Position numbers and translations under genes: made by a program. The notes beneath the pieces were generated by a model. That model did no database searches. It had not been told where the DNA came from and saw only the letters and a program-made list of their open reading frames with translations. Source: Myxococcales bacterium (lineage in GTDB: Bacteria > Myxococcota_A > UBA9042). Taken from it: DNA of 29,726 nt. The stretch covers positions 1 through 29,726 of the forward strand of contig JBBISH010000085.1 of assembly GCA_037441385.1 (NCBI GenBank). The letters are read 5' to 3'. Shown in pieces: positions 3,090 through 27,528 of this stretch (its first letter is position 1; the number at the start of each line of letters is the position of its first letter).

Positions 3090-3662
3090 CTACAGCGCTT
3101 GGGGACCAAAGCGCACTTGGACCGTGCCGCCTGTGTCGCTGACGATGGGCGCCCGCAAGTCTGGCTTGGACTTTTGCAGGCAGGCGGCCACATCGGCCGG
3201 GACGCCGTGGACCTGTAGCTCGAACAGCCCCGATTGCCCCACCTCCAGGCCCGCGATCAGAGCGAATTCCGCGTCGATCGGCGCGGTGGCTGTGGCACCG
3301 CAGCGCTGCAGGGCTTGCCACAGCACCTCCGCGGCAGCCCGCCCAGCGCTGGGATTCAGGGTGCCGCCTGCCTTCAGCAGCGCAATCGGCGCACTTGGCG
3401 GCGCATCGGCCAGGGGTTCGGCAATCGGAGCGGCGATCGGCGGCAGGTGGCCAGGGGTGCGCAACGGGTTCGGCTCATCCGCTTCGGCGGCCGGCGCCAG
3501 TTCTTTGCCACTCGGGTCAGCGCCCCGGTCACGGGGGAATTGGCTTGGCACCAACTTGGGTTGTGGCCTCTGTGGCTTAGGGGGCGTACGCTCGCGCCAC
3601 TCCCACGCCGCCCACGCCAGCACCGCCAACGCCAGCGCGGCTACTAGCGCGGCTCGTCGCAT
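3090..3662 (-). CDS. Membrane-anchored hypothetical protein with Pro-rich linker and possible AgmX/PglI (TonB-C-like) C-terminal domain
   Basis: N-terminal hydrophobic helix AALVAALALAVLAWAAW, Pro-rich linker, and a C-terminal domain with paired Cys (LQRCG...VAACLQ) ending in a beta-strand (GGTVQVRF). Confidence 0.6.
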   Translation of the reverse strand: MRRAALVAALALAVLAWAAWEWRERTPPKPQRPQPKLVPSQFPRDRGADPSGKELAPAAEADEPNPLRTPGHLPPIAAPIAEPLADAPPSAPIALLKAGGTLNPSAGRAAAEVLWQALQRCGATATAPIDAEFALIAGLEVGQSGLFELQVHGVPADVAACLQKSKPDLRAPIVSDTGGTVQVRFGPQAL

Positions 3663-3683
3663 CGGTTGACTCGGCCGCACCGG

Positions 3684-4835
3684 CTACGGACAAGCCGCCT
3701 GGCAAGAGGCCTGGTCGGCAAAGATGTTGGCGCAATAGCTGCCGCAGCCGCAGCCGCTCATCATCACGCATTTGCTGCCGTCGTAGCCCCAGCCGACCAC
3801 CATGTCGCACATGCCCAGCGCGCCGGGGGCGATGGTGGCACAGGTCTTGGCCTTGCACGTCCCGGGCTTGTCCGCGATCAGGCACTTGGCGCCGCATGGA
3901 CACACGCCGGGCGCGGCACAGATCTCGCCCTTGGCGCACTCGGCGTCGGTCCAGCACTGGCCGGCTTTGAGTTCAGACAGCGATTTGCACATGTCCTTGT
4001 CGGCCACGCAGACCTGGCCGGTCCCGCATGGGCCGCTGCTGCAGCAAATGGGCCCGGCGGACCCGCAGGTACCCGGCTTGTCGGCCACCAAGCACATGGC
4101 GCCGCACGGGCAGATGCTGGCGCCGTTGCAGGGGCCGCCGCCGCAGTCCGAGTCGCTCCAACATTGGCCGGCCATCAAGGTGCCGCTGTCCTTGCATACG
4201 CCGCCCACGCAGGCTTCGCCCTTGCCGCAGGGGCCGCCGCAGCAGGTCTCGCTGGTAGCGCAGACGCCTGGGTGCGAGGCCTGGTTGCAGTCCGCGGTGC
4301 ACGGGCAGACAAACGCGTTCAGGCAGGCCAGGCCGCCGCAGTCCTCTTTGGTCCAGCAGGCGCCGGCTTTGGCGGGTGGCAGGCAGTCCAAACCTTCAAC
4401 GCATTGGCTGCCGGCGGGGCAGCCTTGACCGCCCAGGTTGCAGCAGCCGCCCGCCGTGTCGGGCTGGATGTCTTGCGGGGCATCGGGTGTGGCGTCTGGT
4501 GCGGCATCGGGGCTGCTGGAGTCGCCCGACGTGTCCGTGCTGGCGTCGACCACCGCATCCGCCACTGCGTCGGCCACCGTGTCCAGTTGCGCATCGGCGG
4601 TCGTGTCGCCCAGCGTGTCGGCGCCGACGTCACCCTGACCGTCGCTCACGGCGTCGGCCGCGGCCGTGTCACTTGCGCTGGTGTCGCTAGTCGCCGTGTC
4701 CGCGACCGCTGTGTCGTTGGCCGTCCCATCGGCGGCCACCGAGCTGTCCGTCGGGCCCTTGCCCGAGCTTGCCGGCGCTGCTTCGCAACCCACGACCAAA
4801 ACCAGCGCGGTCATCCACGATTGCCATGCCCTCAT
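3684..4835 (-). CDS. Cys-rich lipoprotein: Asp/Thr/Ala linker, three 12-Cys repeats, C-terminal Kunitz-like domain
   Basis: Signal peptide with lipobox VVG-C. Low-complexity DTA region, then three repeats containing GxCW...C...CPCxAxC...PGxC. Ends GMCDMVVGWGYDGSKC...SGC...NIF...C...C. Confidence 0.8.
   Translation of the reverse strand: MRAWQSWMTALVLVVGCEAAPASSGKGPTDSSVAADGTANDTAVADTATSDTSASDTAAADAVSDGQGDVGADTLGDTTADAQLDTVADAVADAVVDASTDTSGDSSSPDAAPDATPDAPQDIQPDTAGGCCNLGGQGCPAGSQCVEGLDCLPPAKAGACWTKEDCGGLACLNAFVCPCTADCNQASHPGVCATSETCCGGPCGKGEACVGGVCKDSGTLMAGQCWSDSDCGGGPCNGASICPCGAMCLVADKPGTCGSAGPICCSSGPCGTGQVCVADKDMCKSLSELKAGQCWTDAECAKGEICAAPGVCPCGAKCLIADKPGTCKAKTCATIAPGALGMCDMVVGWGYDGSKCVMMSGCGCGSYCANIFADQASCQAACP
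3855..4445 (-). repeat. Three tandem ~60-65 aa Cys-rich repeats within the lipoprotein (approximate limits)
   Basis: GACWTKEDC..CPCTADC..HPGVC / GQCWSDSDC..CPCGAMCLVADKPGTC / GQCWTDAEC..CPCGAKCLIADKPGTC. Confidence 0.85.
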
Positions 4836-15935: not shown

Positions 15936-17150
15936 ATGAGCCTTACCTCGCCCTTTGCCGGTTGGCTACCGGCCGCCGATCGCTGTAGCCAAGTCATTGC
16001 GCCCCCCTACGACGTGGTCTCGACCGAAGAAGCCCGCGCTCGCGTGCACGGCAAGCCCCTCAGCTTCCTGCATGTTTCGCGCCCCGAGATCGACCTGCCC
16101 GTCGGCACCGATGTGCACTCGCCACCGGTCTACGCCCAAGCCGCGATCAACTGGCACGGCCTGCAAGCCGCGGGTGCGATTGCCCAGTGGCCGCGCGACG
16201 CGTACTACGTCTACCGGATGCAGATGGGCGAACACGTACAGACCGGTGTGGTGGTCGCCGCCGACGTCGCCGCCTACCGCGAGGGCCGCATCGCCCGCCA
16301 CGAACTGACCCGCCCAGACAAGGAAGACGACCGCGTGCAGCACATTTTGGCGGTGGCGGCGCAGACCGGGCCGGCGCTGTTGGCTTGGCGCGGGCAGCCC
16401 CAGCTGGTGGCGGCCCTGGAACAAGTAGCGAGCCGGCCCGCCGACTTGGACGCGGTGGGCGACGGCGACGTGCGGCACTCGCTTTGGGTCGTCGACGAGC
16501 CGCACCAACTGCAGGCGCTGCATGGCCTTCTCTGTGATTTGCCCAAGCTCTATATCGCCGATGGGCACCACCGCAGCGCGGCGGCTTCGCGGGTGGCGGC
16601 GGCTCAGCCCGGCAACCCCAAGGCGCAGCGGTTCTTGGCCGTGGCGTACGCCGCCGAGCAGATGCAGATCTTGCCGTACCACCGCGTGGTCAAGGACTTG
16701 GCCGGTCTGACGGCGGATCAACTGCTTGCGGCGGCCGGTTCAGCCTTTGCGGTCCAGCGGCTGGGTGGCCGGCCGCAGCTCACCCAGCGCGGCGACCTGG
16801 GCGTCTACCTGAATAATGCCTGGTATTTGTTGCGGATTCACCCTGATCGTATCCCTGCCGACCCGGTCGGTCGCCTGGATGTCAGCCTGTTGCACGATCA
16901 CTTGATCGCGCCGTACCTGCACATCACCGATCCGCGCCGCGACCCACGCATCGACTTCGTGGGCGGAGTGCGCGGCCTGTCCGAGCTGGAACGCCGCGTC
17001 GATTCAGGGGAAATGGCGGTGGCGTTCGCCCTGCATGCCACCAGCATGGCCGACCTCATGGCCGTGGCCGATGCCGGCCTGTTGATGCCACCCAAATCGA
17101 CTTGGTTCGAGCCCAAGTTGGCCGACGCAATGGTGAGTTACGGCCTGTAG
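15936..17150 (+). CDS. DUF1015 family protein
   Basis: APPYDVVS, SFLHVSRPEIDL, HELTRPDKEDDR, YIADGHHRSAAA, IDFVGGVRG, MPPKSTWFEPKL. Confidence 0.92.
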   Translation: MSLTSPFAGWLPAADRCSQVIAPPYDVVSTEEARARVHGKPLSFLHVSRPEIDLPVGTDVHSPPVYAQAAINWHGLQAAGAIAQWPRDAYYVYRMQMGEHVQTGVVVAADVAAYREGRIARHELTRPDKEDDRVQHILAVAAQTGPALLAWRGQPQLVAALEQVASRPADLDAVGDGDVRHSLWVVDEPHQLQALHGLLCDLPKLYIADGHHRSAAASRVAAAQPGNPKAQRFLAVAYAAEQMQILPYHRVVKDLAGLTADQLLAAAGSAFAVQRLGGRPQLTQRGDLGVYLNNAWYLLRIHPDRIPADPVGRLDVSLLHDHLIAPYLHITDPRRDPRIDFVGGVRGLSELERRVDSGEMAVAFALHATSMADLMAVADAGLLMPPKSTWFEPKLADAMVSYGL

Positions 17151-23009: not shown

Positions 23010-25573
23010 CCGCTCACCGCCGTCGCGACCAGGGCCCCTGGCAGCAGTTTCAGTTGCTGGCCGCGCGCTGTCAGCACCACATCGGCGCCGGGCTTGAGCA
23101 GACCATCCAGGATGCAGTCGGTCACAAAGCTTTCGACCACGGCTTCGATGCGCGCTCGCAGCGGCCGCACACCCAATGCGGGATCCAGGCCGCCCTCTAG
23201 CACCAGATCCACCACGCTGTCATCGGCGCGGTAGCGGATGAGGCGCGCCTCGTACAACCGGTCCGCGCCCGCGTCGATGGCCCGCCGCGCCACCACGCGC
23301 GCCGCTTCGCGGTCCAAGGGCCGGAACACTAGACATTCATCAAGTCGGCTGGCCAGCTCCGGCGACAGTTTGCTGCGCACCCGCTCGACCACGGCCTCGT
23401 CTTGGCGGGCCAGCGCCGCTTCGTCCTCGCCCGTGGCGACCACGGTCTCTGCGCCAAAGCCGATCGAGCGCCGCCGGCCGGCCGCCAAAAGCTCTGCGCC
23501 GATGTTGCTGGTGAGCACGATCAGGCAGTTGCGCACATCCACGGCGTGCCCGTGGTTGTCGGTGATGCGACCGGCATCCAGCAATTGCAGCAGCAGCGCC
23601 TGGACTTCCGCTGCAGCGCGGTCCACCTCGTCAAAGAGCAGCACCCGGTACGGCCGCTTCTGCAGCGCCTGCGCCAGCAACCCGACTTGCTGATGGCCCA
23701 CATAGCCCGGCGGCGAGCCCAGCAGCCGCGAAACCGTATGCGGCTCGGCGTATTCGCTCATGTCAAAGCGGACCAGCGCGTCGCCGCTGACAAAGAGGCA
23801 CTCGGCCAGCGCGCGCGCCGTCTCAGTCTTGCCCACGCCCGGCGCTCCCGCGAACAGCAGCGACGCGAGCGGGCGCTGGCCCGAAAATCCGGCGTAATTG
23901 CGCTGTACTCGCCGGGCAATCCGCTCGAGCACTCGGTCGTGGCCCACGATGCGCGCCTTGAGATCCGTGGCCAGGTCGCGGATGCGTCCGCGCTCGTCGG
24001 CCAGCAGCCGCTCCATCGGCACGCCGGTCAGCAGGTGTACCGCGCGCGCCACGTCGTCCACGGCCACTTGCTCGCGGCCCGCCCGCCGCACCTGCGCTCC
24101 AGCGCGGTCCAGCACCGAGATCGCCTTGTCGGGCAGGCAGCGGTCCGTGATGAAGCGCTTGGACAAGTGCACGGACGAGACCACCGCCTCGTGCTGGTAG
24201 AACACCCCGTGGTGCCTGCCAAAATTGGGCGCGACGCCCGCCAGGATCGTCACTGCCTCGGCCGCGCTCGGCTCCGGCACCTCGATCACCTGGAAGCGCC
24301 GATCCATCGCCGGGTCCGACTCGATGTGCCGCTGATACTCGGCCTTGGTCGTCGCGCCAATCAGCGGGAACTTGCCGCGCGACAAGGCGCTTTTCAAATC
24401 GTTCGCCGCGTCCAACGGGCCATCGCCGGTGCCAGCGCCCATCAGCGTGTGAATCTCGTCCATAAAGACGATGACTTGTCCCGCCGCCTTGGCCACCTCG
24501 TCGCGGAGTTTCTTCATCCGCTCCGAGAACGCGCCGCGCAGACCGGTCCCCGCCAGCAGCGCCGATACCGGGATTTCGACGATCACCGCCGATCCCAACT
24601 TGCCGTACTGACTAACGTTTCCAGACAGCCGCAGCGCCAACCCTTCGGCGATCGCGGTCTTGCCCACGCCCGCCTCGCCGATCAGGCACGGGTTGTTGGC
24701 GTGTTTCATCAGCAGGATGTCGATGAGCGCGTCGACAATCGCATCGCGGCCGATGATGGGTTCGATCTCGCCGGCCAGCGCCGCCGCGGTCAGATTGCGC
24801 CCCAGCTCGTTCAGCGTGGGGAACAGGTCCGGGTGCAGCGAAAACACCTTGCCATCAGCGACCTTCCTGCCTATCGGCGGCGGTTCCTGGGGCACCTCGG
24901 CCGGTGGATCCGCGCGCGGCTCGACCTTGGGGGGCGGCGGCACGGTGGGCAGCGGCCGGGTCGGCAGGGCGCTGCGCGGCACCTCGGAGCGTGTGAGATC
25001 GGGGCGCGGCAGATCGGGGCGCGGCAGGTCGGGGCGCGGCAGGTCGGTACGCGTGACGGGCCGATCGCTCAGCGGGCGCAACTCGCTGCTCCGCAAGCTA
25101 TTGTTCGCCGGCGGCTCGGGCTCGGGCGGCCGCACCACCGGCCGCAGCCCAGTGACGCCGCGGTCCTGATCGAACGTGACCTGCCCGATGACCTTGGCGC
25201 GCAGGCTGGGCACGGCCACGCCGGCTCGCTCCAGCACTCGGCAGGCTAGGCTATCGCGCACGCGCAGCAGGCTGGCGAGTAGCACCATCGACGTGGTCTC
25301 GGGTAGACCCGCGCTCTCACTCAACCGCTGGGATTGCCGGTGAATTTCCGCAAGCGCCTCGGGCGGGTCGTCGCGTTCGGCCATCCGCTCGTAGGTGTCG
25401 AGCACGGTCTGGTCGGTCACGCCGGTCTCGACCAGCACGTCGCGCGCCGGGCACTCGACCACGAACATCGCCACCAGATAGTGCACCGACCCGGTCGCCC
25501 GCCCCGTGGCCCGGGCCACGATGTCGGCTTGCGATCGGATCGTCCGCACTTCGCGTGACAGTCGCTCGGCCAT
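23006..25573 (-). CDS. ClpA/ClpC-type Hsp100 ATPase (ClpP-docking, no M-domain) with Pro-rich linker
   Basis: Clp-N-like region. NBD1 motifs NNPCLIGEAGVGKT, VFMDEIH, IGATT, RRFQ, LPDKAI. NBD2 motifs GAPGVGKT, RFDMSEY, GSPPGYVG, LLFDEVD, LTSN. IGF loop SIGFG. Confidence 0.93.
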   Translation of the reverse strand: MAERLSREVRTIRSQADIVARATGRATGSVHYLVAMFVVECPARDVLVETGVTDQTVLDTYERMAERDDPPEALAEIHRQSQRLSESAGLPETTSMVLLASLLRVRDSLACRVLERAGVAVPSLRAKVIGQVTFDQDRGVTGLRPVVRPPEPEPPANNSLRSSELRPLSDRPVTRTDLPRPDLPRPDLPRPDLTRSEVPRSALPTRPLPTVPPPPKVEPRADPPAEVPQEPPPIGRKVADGKVFSLHPDLFPTLNELGRNLTAAALAGEIEPIIGRDAIVDALIDILLMKHANNPCLIGEAGVGKTAIAEGLALRLSGNVSQYGKLGSAVIVEIPVSALLAGTGLRGAFSERMKKLRDEVAKAAGQVIVFMDEIHTLMGAGTGDGPLDAANDLKSALSRGKFPLIGATTKAEYQRHIESDPAMDRRFQVIEVPEPSAAEAVTILAGVAPNFGRHHGVFYQHEAVVSSVHLSKRFITDRCLPDKAISVLDRAGAQVRRAGREQVAVDDVARAVHLLTGVPMERLLADERGRIRDLATDLKARIVGHDRVLERIARRVQRNYAGFSGQRPLASLLFAGAPGVGKTETARALAECLFVSGDALVRFDMSEYAEPHTVSRLLGSPPGYVGHQQVGLLAQALQKRPYRVLLFDEVDRAAAEVQALLLQLLDAGRITDNHGHAVDVRNCLIVLTSNIGAELLAAGRRRSIGFGAETVVATGEDEAALARQDEAVVERVRSKLSPELASRLDECLVFRPLDREAARVVARRAIDAGADRLYEARLIRYRADDSVVDLVLEGGLDPALGVRPLRARIEAVVESFVTDCILDGLLKPGADVVLTARGQQLKLLPGALVATAVSG
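24996..25047. repeat. 15-bp tandem repeat (~3.5 copies) encoding DLPRP in the Clp linker
   Basis: AGATCGGGGCGCGGC x2, AGGTCGGGGCGCGGC, AGGTCGG. Confidence 0.9.
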
Positions 25574-25700
25574 GGCGTGCACAAGTCCGCGGGCTAACTA
25601 GGGTTCGTGGCCAGGTGTGCGCCAATCCGGTCGCGCGTCCGCTGGCGGCGGCGACGACGGACCGCTTGCCCGGCCTGGACCCGCGTCGCACACGGCTGGG

Positions 25701-25728
25701 AGTATCGTCGCCAGCGTGGCCCTGTCAA
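25701..25728 (-). promoter_or_regulatory. Possible sigma70-type promoter for the clp operon
   Basis: Minus strand TTGACA-N16-GATACT, ~130 bp upstream of the clp ATG and just downstream of the terminator at 25799-25839. Confidence 0.45.
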
Positions 25729-25798
25729 CCGCTCCCGTCGCCGGTCGCGCGACGACGTGCCCCCGCCACCAAGGCCGCGCCGCCCGCAAAGGTGCGCC

Positions 25799-25839
25799 AA
25801 AAAGCGGAGCGCGGCGGCTACCAGAGGCAACCGCCGCGC
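25799..25839 (-). terminator. Intrinsic terminator-like hairpin (minus strand)
   Basis: GCGCGGCGGUUGCC-UCU-GGUAGCCGCCGCGC is a 14-bp stem with two G-U pairs that would be A-C mismatches on the plus strand. Followed by UCCGCUUUUU. Confidence 0.65.
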
Positions 25840-26037
25840 GGGTGGCGAGGAAGAACAGGGGCTCCGCACACCGTTGGTCCGCTTGCCGACCGTCACTCCC
25901 TAACGATGACGACGGCCTATCCAACGGGTGGGCTCGGGGCCCGATTGACCTCCGTCCAGGAACTGGGCCGGAGCGGGGAATTGATTTCGGAAGGGGAATG
26001 CACAATGACGCGAATAGGGATTCTTGTCGCCACTTCC
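25799..26037 (-). ncRNA. Candidate sigma54-transcribed structured small RNA (~240 nt), family unknown
   Basis: Bounded by the sigma54 promoter (26050-26066) and the terminator. Long internal hairpin at 25859-25942. No credible ORF with a properly spaced RBS. Confidence 0.5.
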
Positions 26038-26049
26038 AAGCTGGTTCTC

Positions 26050-26066
26050 TGCAACAGTCATGCCAA
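26050..26066 (-). promoter_or_regulatory. Sigma54 -24/-12 promoter
   Basis: TTGGCATGACTGTTGCA matches TGGCAYG-N4-TTGCW with exact GG-N10-GC spacing. Confidence 0.75.
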
Positions 26067-26113
26067 ATCTAGTTTCCAGCCGGATTCGTTCCGCCACTGG
26101 GCGCACCGGACAA

Positions 26114-26126
26114 TAACGCATTGATC
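26114..26126 (-). promoter_or_regulatory. IHF-like site between the sigma54 promoter and the putative enhancers
   Basis: GATCAATGCGTTA against consensus WATCAANNNNTTR (one mismatch), in an AT-rich stretch. Confidence 0.5.
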
Positions 26127-26289
26127 ATGATGGGAAATCTGCTAACTTTGGAGATTCTTAGGGAGTCACATTGGCCCGCCGCGGCGGTCACCGTTGTTGC
26201 AACTGTCTCAACTTGAGAAGCGCGGTCTGGGCGAGTGTCCTGTCGCACCGGCAGTGTGACTCACGTTGCGACACTGTCACACCGGCTCC

Positions 26290-26321
26290 GTCAAATCCGA
26301 CAAGAGTCAAATCCGACAAGA
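26290..26321. repeat. Perfect 16-bp tandem direct repeat
   Basis: GTCAAATCCGACAAGA x2. Confidence 0.9.
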
Positions 26322-26431
26322 GCCTGGGGCGAATGTTCGGGGCCGAACTGGGGCCCAGCCTGATCCTTGCGGGAGTCGCAGGGGCGGGGGTCCTAGAGTG
26401 CGCGGCGCGCCCCCTTTGCCTACTGAAAAGG

Positions 26432-26492
26432 CTAGTACTACAAGCCATTCGAGAGGCCCAACCCTGAACGGACTTCGGGTTTGTAGTACTAG
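26432..26492. repeat. 61-bp inverted-repeat element bounded by CTAG (possible IS-end remnant or mini-MITE)
   Basis: CTAGTACTACAAGCC ... GGTTTGTAGTACTAG, 14/15 complementary. Confidence 0.6.
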
Positions 26493-26574
26493 TTGCAGAG
26501 CGGGTTCGGCAAGCCTTGCCGGGCTGAATCAGGTGGGGGGTGCACCCTGTGGCTTTGCGGTCGCGCGGCCGGTC

Positions 26575-27528
26575 CTACTCGGCGTCGTGGGCGGGCATGT
26601 CGCGCCAGACCACCATGCGCACCGTGCCGGCCACCCGGATCTCCACCGGCGCGCCGGGGGCTACGGTCAGCTCTTCGCCGTCCAGGACCACCAAGTCTTG
26701 GCGGCTGCCGTTGGTCCAAGCCAGGCGCGTCGCCGTGCCGGACTGCAACTGCGGATGACCGCTCAAGATGCCGCGGAGCAGCCCGGGCAAAACGGCTTGA
26801 GTTGCCAGCGGGCCCATGTTCGACAGGGTCATATGCACGCCGGGGCCGTTGCTGACCGTCATGACCCCTGGGAACGGCCGCACCAAGTGAAAGTAGCGCG
26901 GCAGCGGGCTCAAGATGCCAAAGGTGATGTTGGGCAGGCGCAACGGCTCGGGCTCTAGGGTCACGGCGCCATCGATCGGCGCAAAGCGATCCGAGGGCAG
27001 CTGCTGCAGCGCCAACCGCGCCAACAACTCCAAGATGCCGGGCGCGCCCTGCAACATCGCGTGGCGATAGTCGCTGTGGATGCGAGCGACCGCGCCCAGG
27101 CTGACCGTCATTCCGCAGTGATCGGGCAGGCCATCGACCTTGACGCTCAGCACCGGCACACGCTTGATTCGCCGCACACCGCGGGTCCACGCGTGCAGGA
27201 TACGCTGCGCCAACTGCGCCGGCCGCCGCGAGCCCACCAGCGCCGAGGCGATCGTGTTGACCCGGCCTGCCGGCAACACCAACAGCGGCGGCAGCGACTC
27301 GAGCAAGCCGGCCTGGGCAAAGCGCGTCAGTAGGTTGCAGGTGGTGCCGTCGCCGCCCGCCACCACGATGAGCTGGGCGCCGTCGCGCACGGCCGACACC
27401 AAGCCGTCCACGTCGTCGGCGCGATCCGACATCAGCAGGCGCAGTCGCGGCGACGACGTCGCCAACACATGTGCCAGATCGACGGCCGGCTTGTGACCCG
27501 CCGCCGGATTGATTACGCCCACCAACAT
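26575..27528 (-). CDS. Diacylglycerol/lipid kinase family protein (DAGK catalytic domain)
   Basis: VINPAAG, VVAGGDGT, LLVLPAGRVNTIA, C-terminal LDGE. RBS GGAGG lies 5 nt before ATG 27528. Confidence 0.88.
   Translation of the reverse strand: MLVGVINPAAGHKPAVDLAHVLATSSPRLRLLMSDRADDVDGLVSAVRDGAQLIVVAGGDGTTCNLLTRFAQAGLLESLPPLLVLPAGRVNTIASALVGSRRPAQLAQRILHAWTRGVRRIKRVPVLSVKVDGLPDHCGMTVSLGAVARIHSDYRHAMLQGAPGILELLARLALQQLPSDRFAPIDGAVTLEPEPLRLPNITFGILSPLPRYFHLVRPFPGVMTVSNGPGVHMTLSNMGPLATQAVLPGLLRGILSGHPQLQSGTATRLAWTNGSRQDLVVLDGEELTVAPGAPVEIRVAGTVRMVVWRDMPAHDAE

Follow-up and report, generated by a model that had tools for sequence, protein, structure and literature searches.

Sequence comparison suggests that the minus strand of the DNA analyzed here, a 29,726-nt stretch from a Myxococcales bacterium (contig JBBISH010000085.1, hereafter the window), very probably carries an independent RNA gene of the sigma-54 type. 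The gene lies in a gap of about 1 kb between two minus-strand genes, one with a DAGK_cat domain that ends at 26575 (hereafter DAGK) and one for a Clp/Hsp100-type double AAA+ protein that starts at 25582 (hereafter clp). The unit extends over 26273..25799 and comprises two enhancer palindromes, a near-perfect -24/-12 box, an RNA of about 240 nt and a strong intrinsic terminator. The explanation that we favor for the locus as a whole, with fair confidence, is that it holds an independent gene for a new family of structured non-coding RNA, which would be driven by a regulator and would act by pairing with Shine-Dalgarno (SD) sequences. An earlier note on this DNA had proposed an unannotated small RNA (sRNA) gene controlled by sigma-54 and a bacterial enhancer-binding protein (bEBP) and separate from clp. 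The elements that it listed were all confirmed at the locus. Its suggested collection of homologs followed by a covariation check found promoter and stems conserved in relatives, and the conservation of promoter, enhancer, covarying RNA body and terminator supports its reading. The note lacked the pseudoknot, the additional paralog in this genome and the candidate activator gene, all described below.

The predicted sigma-54 promoter, TGGCATgactgTTGCA, is located at 26065..26050 on the minus strand, with the GG at 26064-26063 and the GC at 26052-26051, and places the transcription start (+1) at about 26039-26037. Exact TGGCAY-N5-TTGCW boxes are few in the 6.6-Mb genome, which contains only 24 of them compared with about 6 expected by chance from base composition. 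When 25780..26340 was used as a BLAST query against 40 relatives, matches were found in six of the ten other genomes of the genus and in none of the 30 genomes outside it. In the two closest genomes the matches span 26076..25797 and 26037..25797, beginning at the -24 box in one and at the predicted +1 in the other and reaching the last U, and the DNA further upstream gave no alignment. The box retains 10-11 of its 11 consensus letters, at identical spacing, in all seven copies of the genus. Downstream of it, the RNA body (25799..26039, minus strand, about 241 nt counted from the predicted start site through the U-run) finishes in the intrinsic terminator at 25839..25799, where a 14-bp G+C-rich stem (25839..25809) is followed by UCCGCUUUUU, with the U-run ending at 25799. 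This hairpin, already recognized in the earlier note, is conserved: it has 14 pairs in the genus alignment and 14 model pairs in the family alignment, arranged in two helices with 93.7% and 95.3% of cells paired. Folding of the RNA from 26038 to 25799 yielded -103.5 kcal/mol (z = -3.0), which was equalled by one of 200 shuffled sequences.

Neighboring genes bear directly on whether the RNA belongs to clp. The order DAGK>RNA>clp on one strand was found in five genomes of genus g1 and in genera g3, g5 and g11, and clp is also downstream of the RNA in two g12 loci. In four other genomes of the window's own genus, a near-identical RNA (198-238 bits) adjoins a convergent hemA gene (glutamyl-tRNA reductase). 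Variants of the context include SRPBCC/cNMP, then the RNA, then convergent hemA; PEP-utilizer>RNA>NUDIX; and others, with further copies upstream of NUDIX or thiolase genes or beside convergent SerB-like genes. Since the RNA gene occurs in at least three unrelated neighborhoods, in some of which the next gene is convergent, it is not a clp leader, which agrees with the earlier argument against a simple 5' untranslated region. We also weighed a more elaborate version, in which a sigma-54-dependent leader or attenuator would let polymerase read through the terminator conditionally and so place clp under control of the enhancer. The co-oriented arrangements in g1, g3, g5, g11 and g12 fit this idea, as does the distance of about 215 nt between the RNA 3' end and the clp start, but the near-identical RNAs beside convergent hemA in the same genus and the copies next to NUDIX, thiolase and SerB-like genes do not. 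Moreover, the G+C-rich terminator stem with its U-run shows no evident alternative pairing, complementarity of the RNA to the start region of clp does not exceed the control level, and a conserved promoter for clp lies beyond the terminator. The latter, a sigma-70-like TTGACA-16-GATACT box at 25728..25701 (minus strand), was anticipated in the earlier note and marks a boundary outside the RNA gene; it is retained in the two nearest relatives (L008 and L010), with TTGAC-type boxes in L021, L024 and L025. We consider the leader explanation very unlikely.

The fold of the RNA was analyzed by RNAalifold on the seven genus copies, which placed 53 pairs in a 6-bp closing helix P1, a hairpin P2, a composite hairpin P3 and the terminator; compensatory double changes are seen in 20 of these pairs. 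G-U pairs in the stems of this alignment are consistent with the minus strand, as had been supposed. P1 closes the RNA body by pairing GUGGCG (26033..26028) with CGCCAC (25847..25842); all six of its pairs are changed on both sides across the family, and 95.1% of cells are paired. P2 (25972..25951) shows compensatory changes, with 75-87% of cells paired in the family alignment. P3 (25942..25859) is the interrupted hairpin of about 84 nt with a CCGUUGG/CCAACGG core that the earlier note had drawn, and it covaries, every pair having changed on both sides; its parts are P3a (25942..25935 with 25866..25859), P3b (25930..25922 with 25876..25867) and P3c (25916..25914 with 25887..25885). Because a MAFFT alignment of 43 diverse members was poorly registered in the variable helices, pairs in the family were counted on a model-based alignment of 49 rows, six of them partial or spurious. 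In the structure taken as a whole, 91.9% of cells pair, compared to 64.4% after shuffling and 34-42% with the partner slid, in an alignment that was fitted to the model structure and whose pair counts therefore lean towards it, which counts to some extent against our interpretation. Both sides have changed in 50 of the 57 pairs, and the covariation score was reached by none of 500 shuffles.

A 6-bp pseudoknot is predicted in addition. UCCCUA at 26020..26015, within the invariant AAUCCCUAU, is complementary to UAGGGA at 25902..25897, the loop of the apical hairpin GUCAUCGUUAGGGAGUGAC (25910..25892). The pseudoknot pairs are formed in all 43 rows and none is broken; one A-U pair has become G-C in seven rows, and members with UCCCUG always have CAGGGA. 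As the G-C form comprises one paralog lineage and at least one separate sequence, the independent events are few. Collectively, the covariation data support the predicted P1 helix, both hairpin domains and the pseudoknot.

To describe the family we built a covariance model (R1) from the seven genus copies, starting about 5 nt before +1 and with the promoter excluded. Within the bacterial family, the model matched 20 of the 37 genomes, the 20 belonging to 7 of the 14 genera, and a sigma-54 box (at least 9 of 11 consensus letters) is directly upstream of 23 of the 25 matches; of the two box-less ones, one is cut by a contig end and the other is a spurious terminator-only match. Since the promoter was outside the model, its presence is an independent check on the matches. 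Over the window's own class, 15 of 107 genomes had R1 matches, all within the family; none was obtained in 70 genomes of 17 other families of the class under strict filters and with a model trained on one genus. Two motifs are invariant, AUCCCU close to the 5' end of the RNA and, across 43 sequences, CA.CG..AGGGAGUG of the apical hairpin. The first follows the promoter by 39-46 nt and the second follows the first by 94-115 nt. A looser motif pattern was present in one or two copies in 31 of the 37 family genomes and 13 of the 14 genera, with two copies in 8 of 11 own-genus genomes, and the reversed-pattern control gave 0 everywhere.

When one genome of each GTDB species was scanned with the exact pattern, 61 loci emerged, 39 of which have a sigma-54 box (at least 9 of 11 letters) 39-47 nt before the first RNA motif. 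The box-bearing loci come nearly all from Myxococcales, Myxococcota or Deltaproteobacteria metagenome-assembled genomes, which places the RNA family in Myxococcota. Roughly 30 matches to the exact pattern are expected by chance from base composition, and the box-less loci in unrelated phyla, which lack a full-length model match, fit this expectation. Five loci labelled 'uncultured Enterobacteriaceae' (L047, L064, L073, L082 and L090) have the myxobacterial RNA with a sigma-54 box at a G+C content of 0.62-0.66; these labels are probably wrong.

The same alignments address the possibility that the interval encodes a small protein and that its conservation is that of a coding sequence. Minus-strand open reading frames (ORFs) of 73 and 135 amino acids do overlap the region, and many members have an AUG directly after the first motif. 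The AUG is, however, missing in the window copy and several others, no Pfam match was obtained for any of the four ORFs scanned in the gap, the stem substitutions are compensatory, and alignment gaps of 1, 2, 4 and 5 columns among the genus copies break the frames, so that no reading frame is conserved. We regard a coding origin as extremely improbable, in keeping with the statement of the earlier note that the gap has no convincing ORF.

That note had also been unable to assign the RNA to a known family, and our searches agree. A search of the whole window against Rfam 15 gave nothing that passed gathering thresholds, and at E<=10 over 25400..26700 there were only two irrelevant chance matches, both outside the RNA. 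No description of this RNA was found in the full-text literature within the terms and library covered. The RNA represents a new family inside a predicted circuit of a known kind, that of bEBP/sigma-54-controlled sRNAs.

The genome of the window has a second paralog, on contig C125 at about 16026..16321 of the minus strand (3527..3822 of locus L096), with GGAAUCCCUGUG at its 5' end and CACCGUCAGGGAGUG as its loop; the RNA gene proper is placed at about 16280..16026. The R1 search did not detect this copy. It has its own sigma-54 box, two enhancer palindromes (C125:16404 and 16470) and the G-C form of the pseudoknot, and it is followed by genes for NUDIX, ABC-F and QueG.

Upstream of the window RNA, two palindromes form the putative upstream activating sequences. 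Site 1, TGTCGCAACGTGAGTCA (26273..26257, minus strand), matches TGTCTCA-N3-TGAGACA with two mismatches; site 2, CTTCTCAAGTTGAGACA (26220..26204, minus strand), begins 53 bp further downstream and lies about 155 bp upstream of the promoter. The earlier note had treated all of 26204-26321 as enhancer-like. Its palindromes proved to be conserved, and its direct repeats, two copies of CTTGTCGGATTTGA at 26320..26291 on the minus strand, occur in the own genome only here and are probably outside the conserved unit. We scanned 350 nt upstream of the promoters of the family for TGTCTCA-N3-TGAGACA with at most three mismatches and found 69 matches in 17.1 kb, compared to one in 15.3 kb of downstream control sequence. 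The palindrome is upstream in 40 of 45 unique loci and is common to all paralog types, usually as two palindromes about 40-53 bp apart. The integration host factor (IHF)-like site of the earlier note fared less well. Its core, ATCAATGCGTTA, does match ATCAA-N4-TTR (here with TTA) at 26125..26114 on the minus strand, where the spacer is moderately rich in A+T, but just 3 of 41 loci have the consensus core; the IHF site, which is not established in the window, was dropped as a conserved element. The A+T content between enhancer and promoter is 0.39-0.50, compared with 0.27-0.37 at -300 to -200.

With at most two mismatches, the 6.6-Mb genome contains only six such palindromes: two at the window RNA, two at the C125 paralog, one at a bEBP gene and one at C18:50832. 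The bEBP gene (contig C1, 4979-6571; L097 2480..4072) encodes a protein of 530 amino acids with REC, Sigma54_activat and AAA_lid_14 domains, and its palindrome, at C1:4892 (L097 2393), is 87 nt before the gene. One clear full-length ortholog per genome was found in 31 of the 37 family genomes, with scores of 429-1156 bits, and the best partial-coverage matches listed reach at most 349 bits. The orthologs share a conserved RlmN-bEBP-DUF2520 synteny, with RlmN divergent and DUF2520 convergent, and no kinase gene is adjacent to them. We call them orthologs because of this synteny and because their full-length scores are well above those of paralogs. A palindrome lies within 400 nt upstream of the gene in 28 of the 30 ortholog loci fetched and inside the gene in 0 of 30. 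The protein does not reach the cut-off of any named equivalog, whether NtrC, AtoC, LuxO, GlrR or another. These data point to the C1 gene product, an orphan response regulator of the NtrC family, as the probable activator of the RNA.

The sigma factor itself is present, since rpoN was found on contig C1 as a 586-aa frame with a PF04552 match of 158.5 bits. An exact sigma-54 box, TGGCACGATGCTTGCT, is situated at C1:63373 (minus strand) near the expected start of this frame, whose DNA-binding domain is at 61582..62130; rpoN or its upstream neighbor may be transcribed in a sigma-54-dependent manner. Separately, three exact sigma-54 boxes are located within 4.5 kb on the minus strand of contig C22, at 22491, 23714 and 26908, and mark a putative cluster of sigma-54-dependent units.

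In the mechanism that we propose, sigma-54 RNA polymerase would sit on the -24/-12 box at 26065..26050 and wait for the enhancer-binding protein, which would occupy the two TGTCTCA-N3-TGAGACA palindromes 140-210 bp upstream. A signal from an unlinked kinase would then reach the orphan regulator and cause a burst of both RNAs; the predicted regulon would consist of the regulator's own gene, by autoregulation, and the two paralogous RNA genes. Transcription of the RNA would stop at the strong intrinsic terminator, and the RNA would fold into P1, P2, P3 and the UCCCUA/UAGGGA pseudoknot.

What the RNA then does is suggested by its unpaired strands. The consensus leaves two linkers unpaired, at 26014..25973 and at about 25858..25848. 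The first is a G-poor, C/U-rich single strand (with CAUUCCCCUUCC followed by AAUUCCCC) that we propose as the seed region; the second, CUGUUCUUCCU at 25858..25848, lies between P3 and the 3' strand of P1 and has CCCCUUCC as its family counterpart. Across 46 family members, the 40 nt that follow the 5' motif contain 9.2% G, 41% C and 29% U, compared to 25.5% G overall, so that the C/U-rich 5' region of the earlier note holds for the family as well. The commonest 5-mers of the 5' linker are CUUCC, UCCUU, CCAUC and CAUCC, and the motifs of the linkers include CCCUUCC and CUUCCUC, with CACCUCCUUUC in paralogs; the window copy has CCCCUUCC and CUUCCUC. The 3' end of the genome's own 16S rRNA reads ...GGATCACCTCCTTT, some type II copies contain TCACCTCCTTT, and in some paralogs the C/U-rich strands repeat as many as 11 nt of the 16S rRNA 3' end. 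Searches for Hfq and CsrA in the own genome, which is 90.9% complete, were negative. The unpaired C/U-rich strands have the look of sRNAs whose C-rich regions act on SD sequences without Hfq. It is conceivable, and we put it forward tentatively, that these G-poor strands pair with ribosome-binding sites: free of Hfq, they would base-pair with purine-rich ribosome-binding sites of mRNAs and lower translation, in the manner of RoxS/RsaE.

Specific targets were sought in several ways. The clp mRNA was rejected, since duplexes of the seed with the clp start region were energetically no better than those of shuffled sequences, with z values of -1.4 to +1.1 in nine loci. Feedback on the bEBP mRNA, as in LuxO/Qrr, was rejected as well, with a mean z of +0.46 for seed against leader in 19 RNA/regulator pairs. 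In a crude set of candidate start codons, complements of the 10-mer seed lay near 164 of 534 candidate starts, compared with 82 of 324 for the reversed control, which is no clear enrichment. Genome-wide BLAST of the seed complement returned recurring 12-14-mers that are the antisense of Cys-rich repeat coding sequence (…CDDKNPC…); these mRNAs have the same sense as the RNA, so pairing is impossible. The repeats in question (…C-D-D-K-N-P-C-T…, at C33:3792, C51:40768, C62:33532 and C73:27903 of the own genome) share 12-14 nt with the RNA 5' end, CGACAAGAAUCCCU, and we take this to be a coincidence.

The first three of these results weigh against our interpretation, and other observations do so too. 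The bases at the top of the conservation scale are those of the pseudoknot and apical loop and not those of the C/U strands, and the extra P3 hairpins of other genera carry GAAA or UUCG tetraloops. Such a conservation pattern is as typical of structured RNAs that bind a protein or ligand as of base-pairing sRNAs. On the side of regulation, the palindrome at C18:50832 has neither a sigma-54 box nor an evident link to the circuit, and the candidate activator is assigned through motif co-occurrence only. The linkage to clp is retained in at least five genera, which makes some read-through role possible. Finally, look-alikes of the RNA in three or four genomes of about 1 Mb have no sigma-54 box or enhancer palindrome.

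These look-alikes were found with the motif pattern at L043, L061, L052 and L058, in four genomes (G053-G056) of about 0.9-1.1 Mb, three of them labelled Candidatus Uhrbacteria. Three of the four gave full-length R1 alignments with P1, P2 and P3 (28.2, 22.9 and 19.6 bits), scores that come in part from the motifs used to find them. The core common to the Uhrbacteria-labelled genomes is AAUCCCUAU pairing with the loop of CAUCGUUAGGGAGUG, together with P1 and P3. A chance origin of three look-alikes within one small lineage is unlikely. Their neighborhoods have nothing in common, and the pattern with one mismatch gave two matches in 401 genomes of their phylum, the starting genome and a likely chance match. 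They are possible homologs, through horizontal transfer or as members of an older RNA class.

Since the pseudoknot core is the most strongly conserved part, binding of a protein or the ribosome has to be taken seriously as an alternative to SD pairing. The RNA would then be a sponge, decoy or scaffold in which the pseudoknotted core serves for recognition and the repeated C/U motifs either are bound by a pyrimidine-binding protein or imitate the 3' tail of 16S rRNA; we judge this to be rather unlikely. Several observations agree with such a role: the invariant positions are the pseudoknot strands and unpaired loop bases, repeated CUCCUUUC-type motifs and tetraloop-capped accessory hairpins are found in many members, and the core occurs without sigma-54 control in the possible homologs of the 1-Mb genomes. 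Two paralogs per genome also recall the decoy pairs GlmY/GlmZ and CrcZ/CrcY, and no specific mRNA target emerged from the seed searches. On the other hand, Hfq and CsrA were not found, no protein emerged as a candidate partner, the protein genes next to the RNA vary between loci, and G-poor C/U-rich strands complementary to SD sequences are the classic mark of a pairing sRNA. A broader variant, which we hold to be improbable, is that an older, cross-phylum class of pseudoknotted RNA was captured by an orphan NtrC-type regulator and would serve as a 16S-tail mimic, either as a global brake on SD-dependent translation or as a decoy for the ribosome or a protein.

The multi-helix junction, conserved pseudoknot and invariant unpaired bases, and the occurrence in two very distant lineages, would also suit a stand-alone ligand-sensing or catalytic RNA, such as an orphan riboswitch-like aptamer with a core that binds a small molecule, or a ribozyme. 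Against this, Rfam yielded neither a riboswitch nor a ribozyme even at E<=10, the downstream gene varies between loci, P1 and the terminator are not in competition, and a dedicated transcriptional switch would be unusual for such RNAs. This explanation appears highly improbable. We return to SD pairing under a dedicated regulator as the preferred reading and compare it with known systems.

Rfam holds a model of Pxr. The Pxr RNA of Myxococcus xanthus and its relatives has 108 nt and three stem-loops and is always directly downstream of the bEBP gene nla19 (PMC5568312). The window RNA resembles Pxr, as described there, in its phylum, predicted sigma-54 promoter and enhancer site, own terminator, multi-stem fold and paralogs in some genera. 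It differs in its size of about 240 nt, its closing helix, pseudoknot and composite hairpin, and in having no Rfam match. Its neighbors differ as well, being DAGK and clp, or hemA, NUDIX and others, whereas RlmN and DUF2520 flank the gene of its candidate bEBP on a different contig.

In Vibrio, the NtrC-type regulator LuxO and sigma-54 drive the paralogous Qrr sRNAs, which are about 100 nt long and Hfq-dependent, and the direct regulon is essentially these sRNAs and LuxO itself. Qrr1 of V. fischeri is reported to belong to a LuxO-type circuit (PMC10162802). The likeness to our locus is a regulator that, with sigma-54, is predicted to act on paralogous sRNA genes and its own gene; the differences are that no Hfq was found here, that the regulator reaches 361.5 bits compared to a LuxO cut-off of 800, and that no Qrr model matched. 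Sites of GlrR have the form TGTC-N10-GACA, and the palindrome here is a similar TGTC-N9-GACA. In Enterobacteria, GlrR (QseF) is reported to be a response regulator that, together with sigma-54, drives the homologous sRNAs GlmY and GlmZ, one of which is a decoy (PMC4152352). There is no RNA homology to this pair, the regulator has 311.7 bits compared to a GlrR cut-off of 763, and no link to glmS is seen.

CrcZ and CrcY contain repeated single-stranded motifs. They are paralogous RNAs of Pseudomonas under sigma-54/NtrC-type control by CbrB, according to PMC6296734. The window RNA shares this type of control, the presence of paralogs and repeated single-stranded motifs; CrcZ, however, sequesters Hfq/Crc via A-rich motifs, whereas here the motifs are rich in C and U and the search for Hfq was negative. 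The RoxS/RsaE RNAs of Firmicutes (PMC8216469) use unpaired C-rich motifs to pair with G-rich SD sequences, without Hfq and under two-component control. The unpaired C-rich motifs complementary to SD sequences in the window RNA are a likeness of action and not of family membership, as RoxS/RsaE RNAs are about 100 nt long, sigma-A-dependent, without a pseudoknot and without homology to it. The sigma-54 regulome of Desulfovibrio vulgaris includes four non-coding RNAs, and regulators of non-coding RNAs are biased to free-living species, as set out in PMC4641369. That system is similar in that bEBP regulons include non-coding RNAs and differs in lineage, with no evidence of homology, the sequences not having been compared. 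With no Rfam match, another size and fold, and no linkage to a bEBP gene, the window RNA is not a member of the named sRNA families.

Two features of the surrounding DNA remain to be described. The Clp protein of the window scores under the NCBIfam cut-offs for both ClpB and ClpA. Directly after the DAGK stop, an A+T-rich palindromic element of about 61 nt, CTAGTACTACAA…TTGTAGTACTAG, occupies 26492..26432 on the minus strand. Its arms have 33 genomic occurrences each, typically paired about 60 nt apart, and it looks like a repeat of the repetitive extragenic palindrome (REP) type or the miniature inverted-repeat transposable element (MITE) type. The gap is about 280 nt longer than in the closest relative, probably because of this element.

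The new RNA family, with its covariation-supported pseudoknot, is a ready addition to annotation pipelines, and the tiny predicted regulon would make it an unusually clean test bed. The complete circuit of signal, orphan regulator, enhancer, sigma-54 promoter and two structured RNAs is predicted from sequence alone in an uncultured family of Myxococcota. To our knowledge only a handful of dedicated regulator-to-sRNA circuits are known (LuxO-Qrr, GlrR-GlmY, CbrB-CrcZ and Pxr), and each of these sits at a major physiological switch. The look-alikes in genomes of about 1 Mb suggest that the function of the RNA core may be older than its sigma-54 wiring. If the reading as a 16S-tail mimic were true, the RNA would give these bacteria a signal-controlled global translation brake or decoy, unlike a classical sRNA with few targets.

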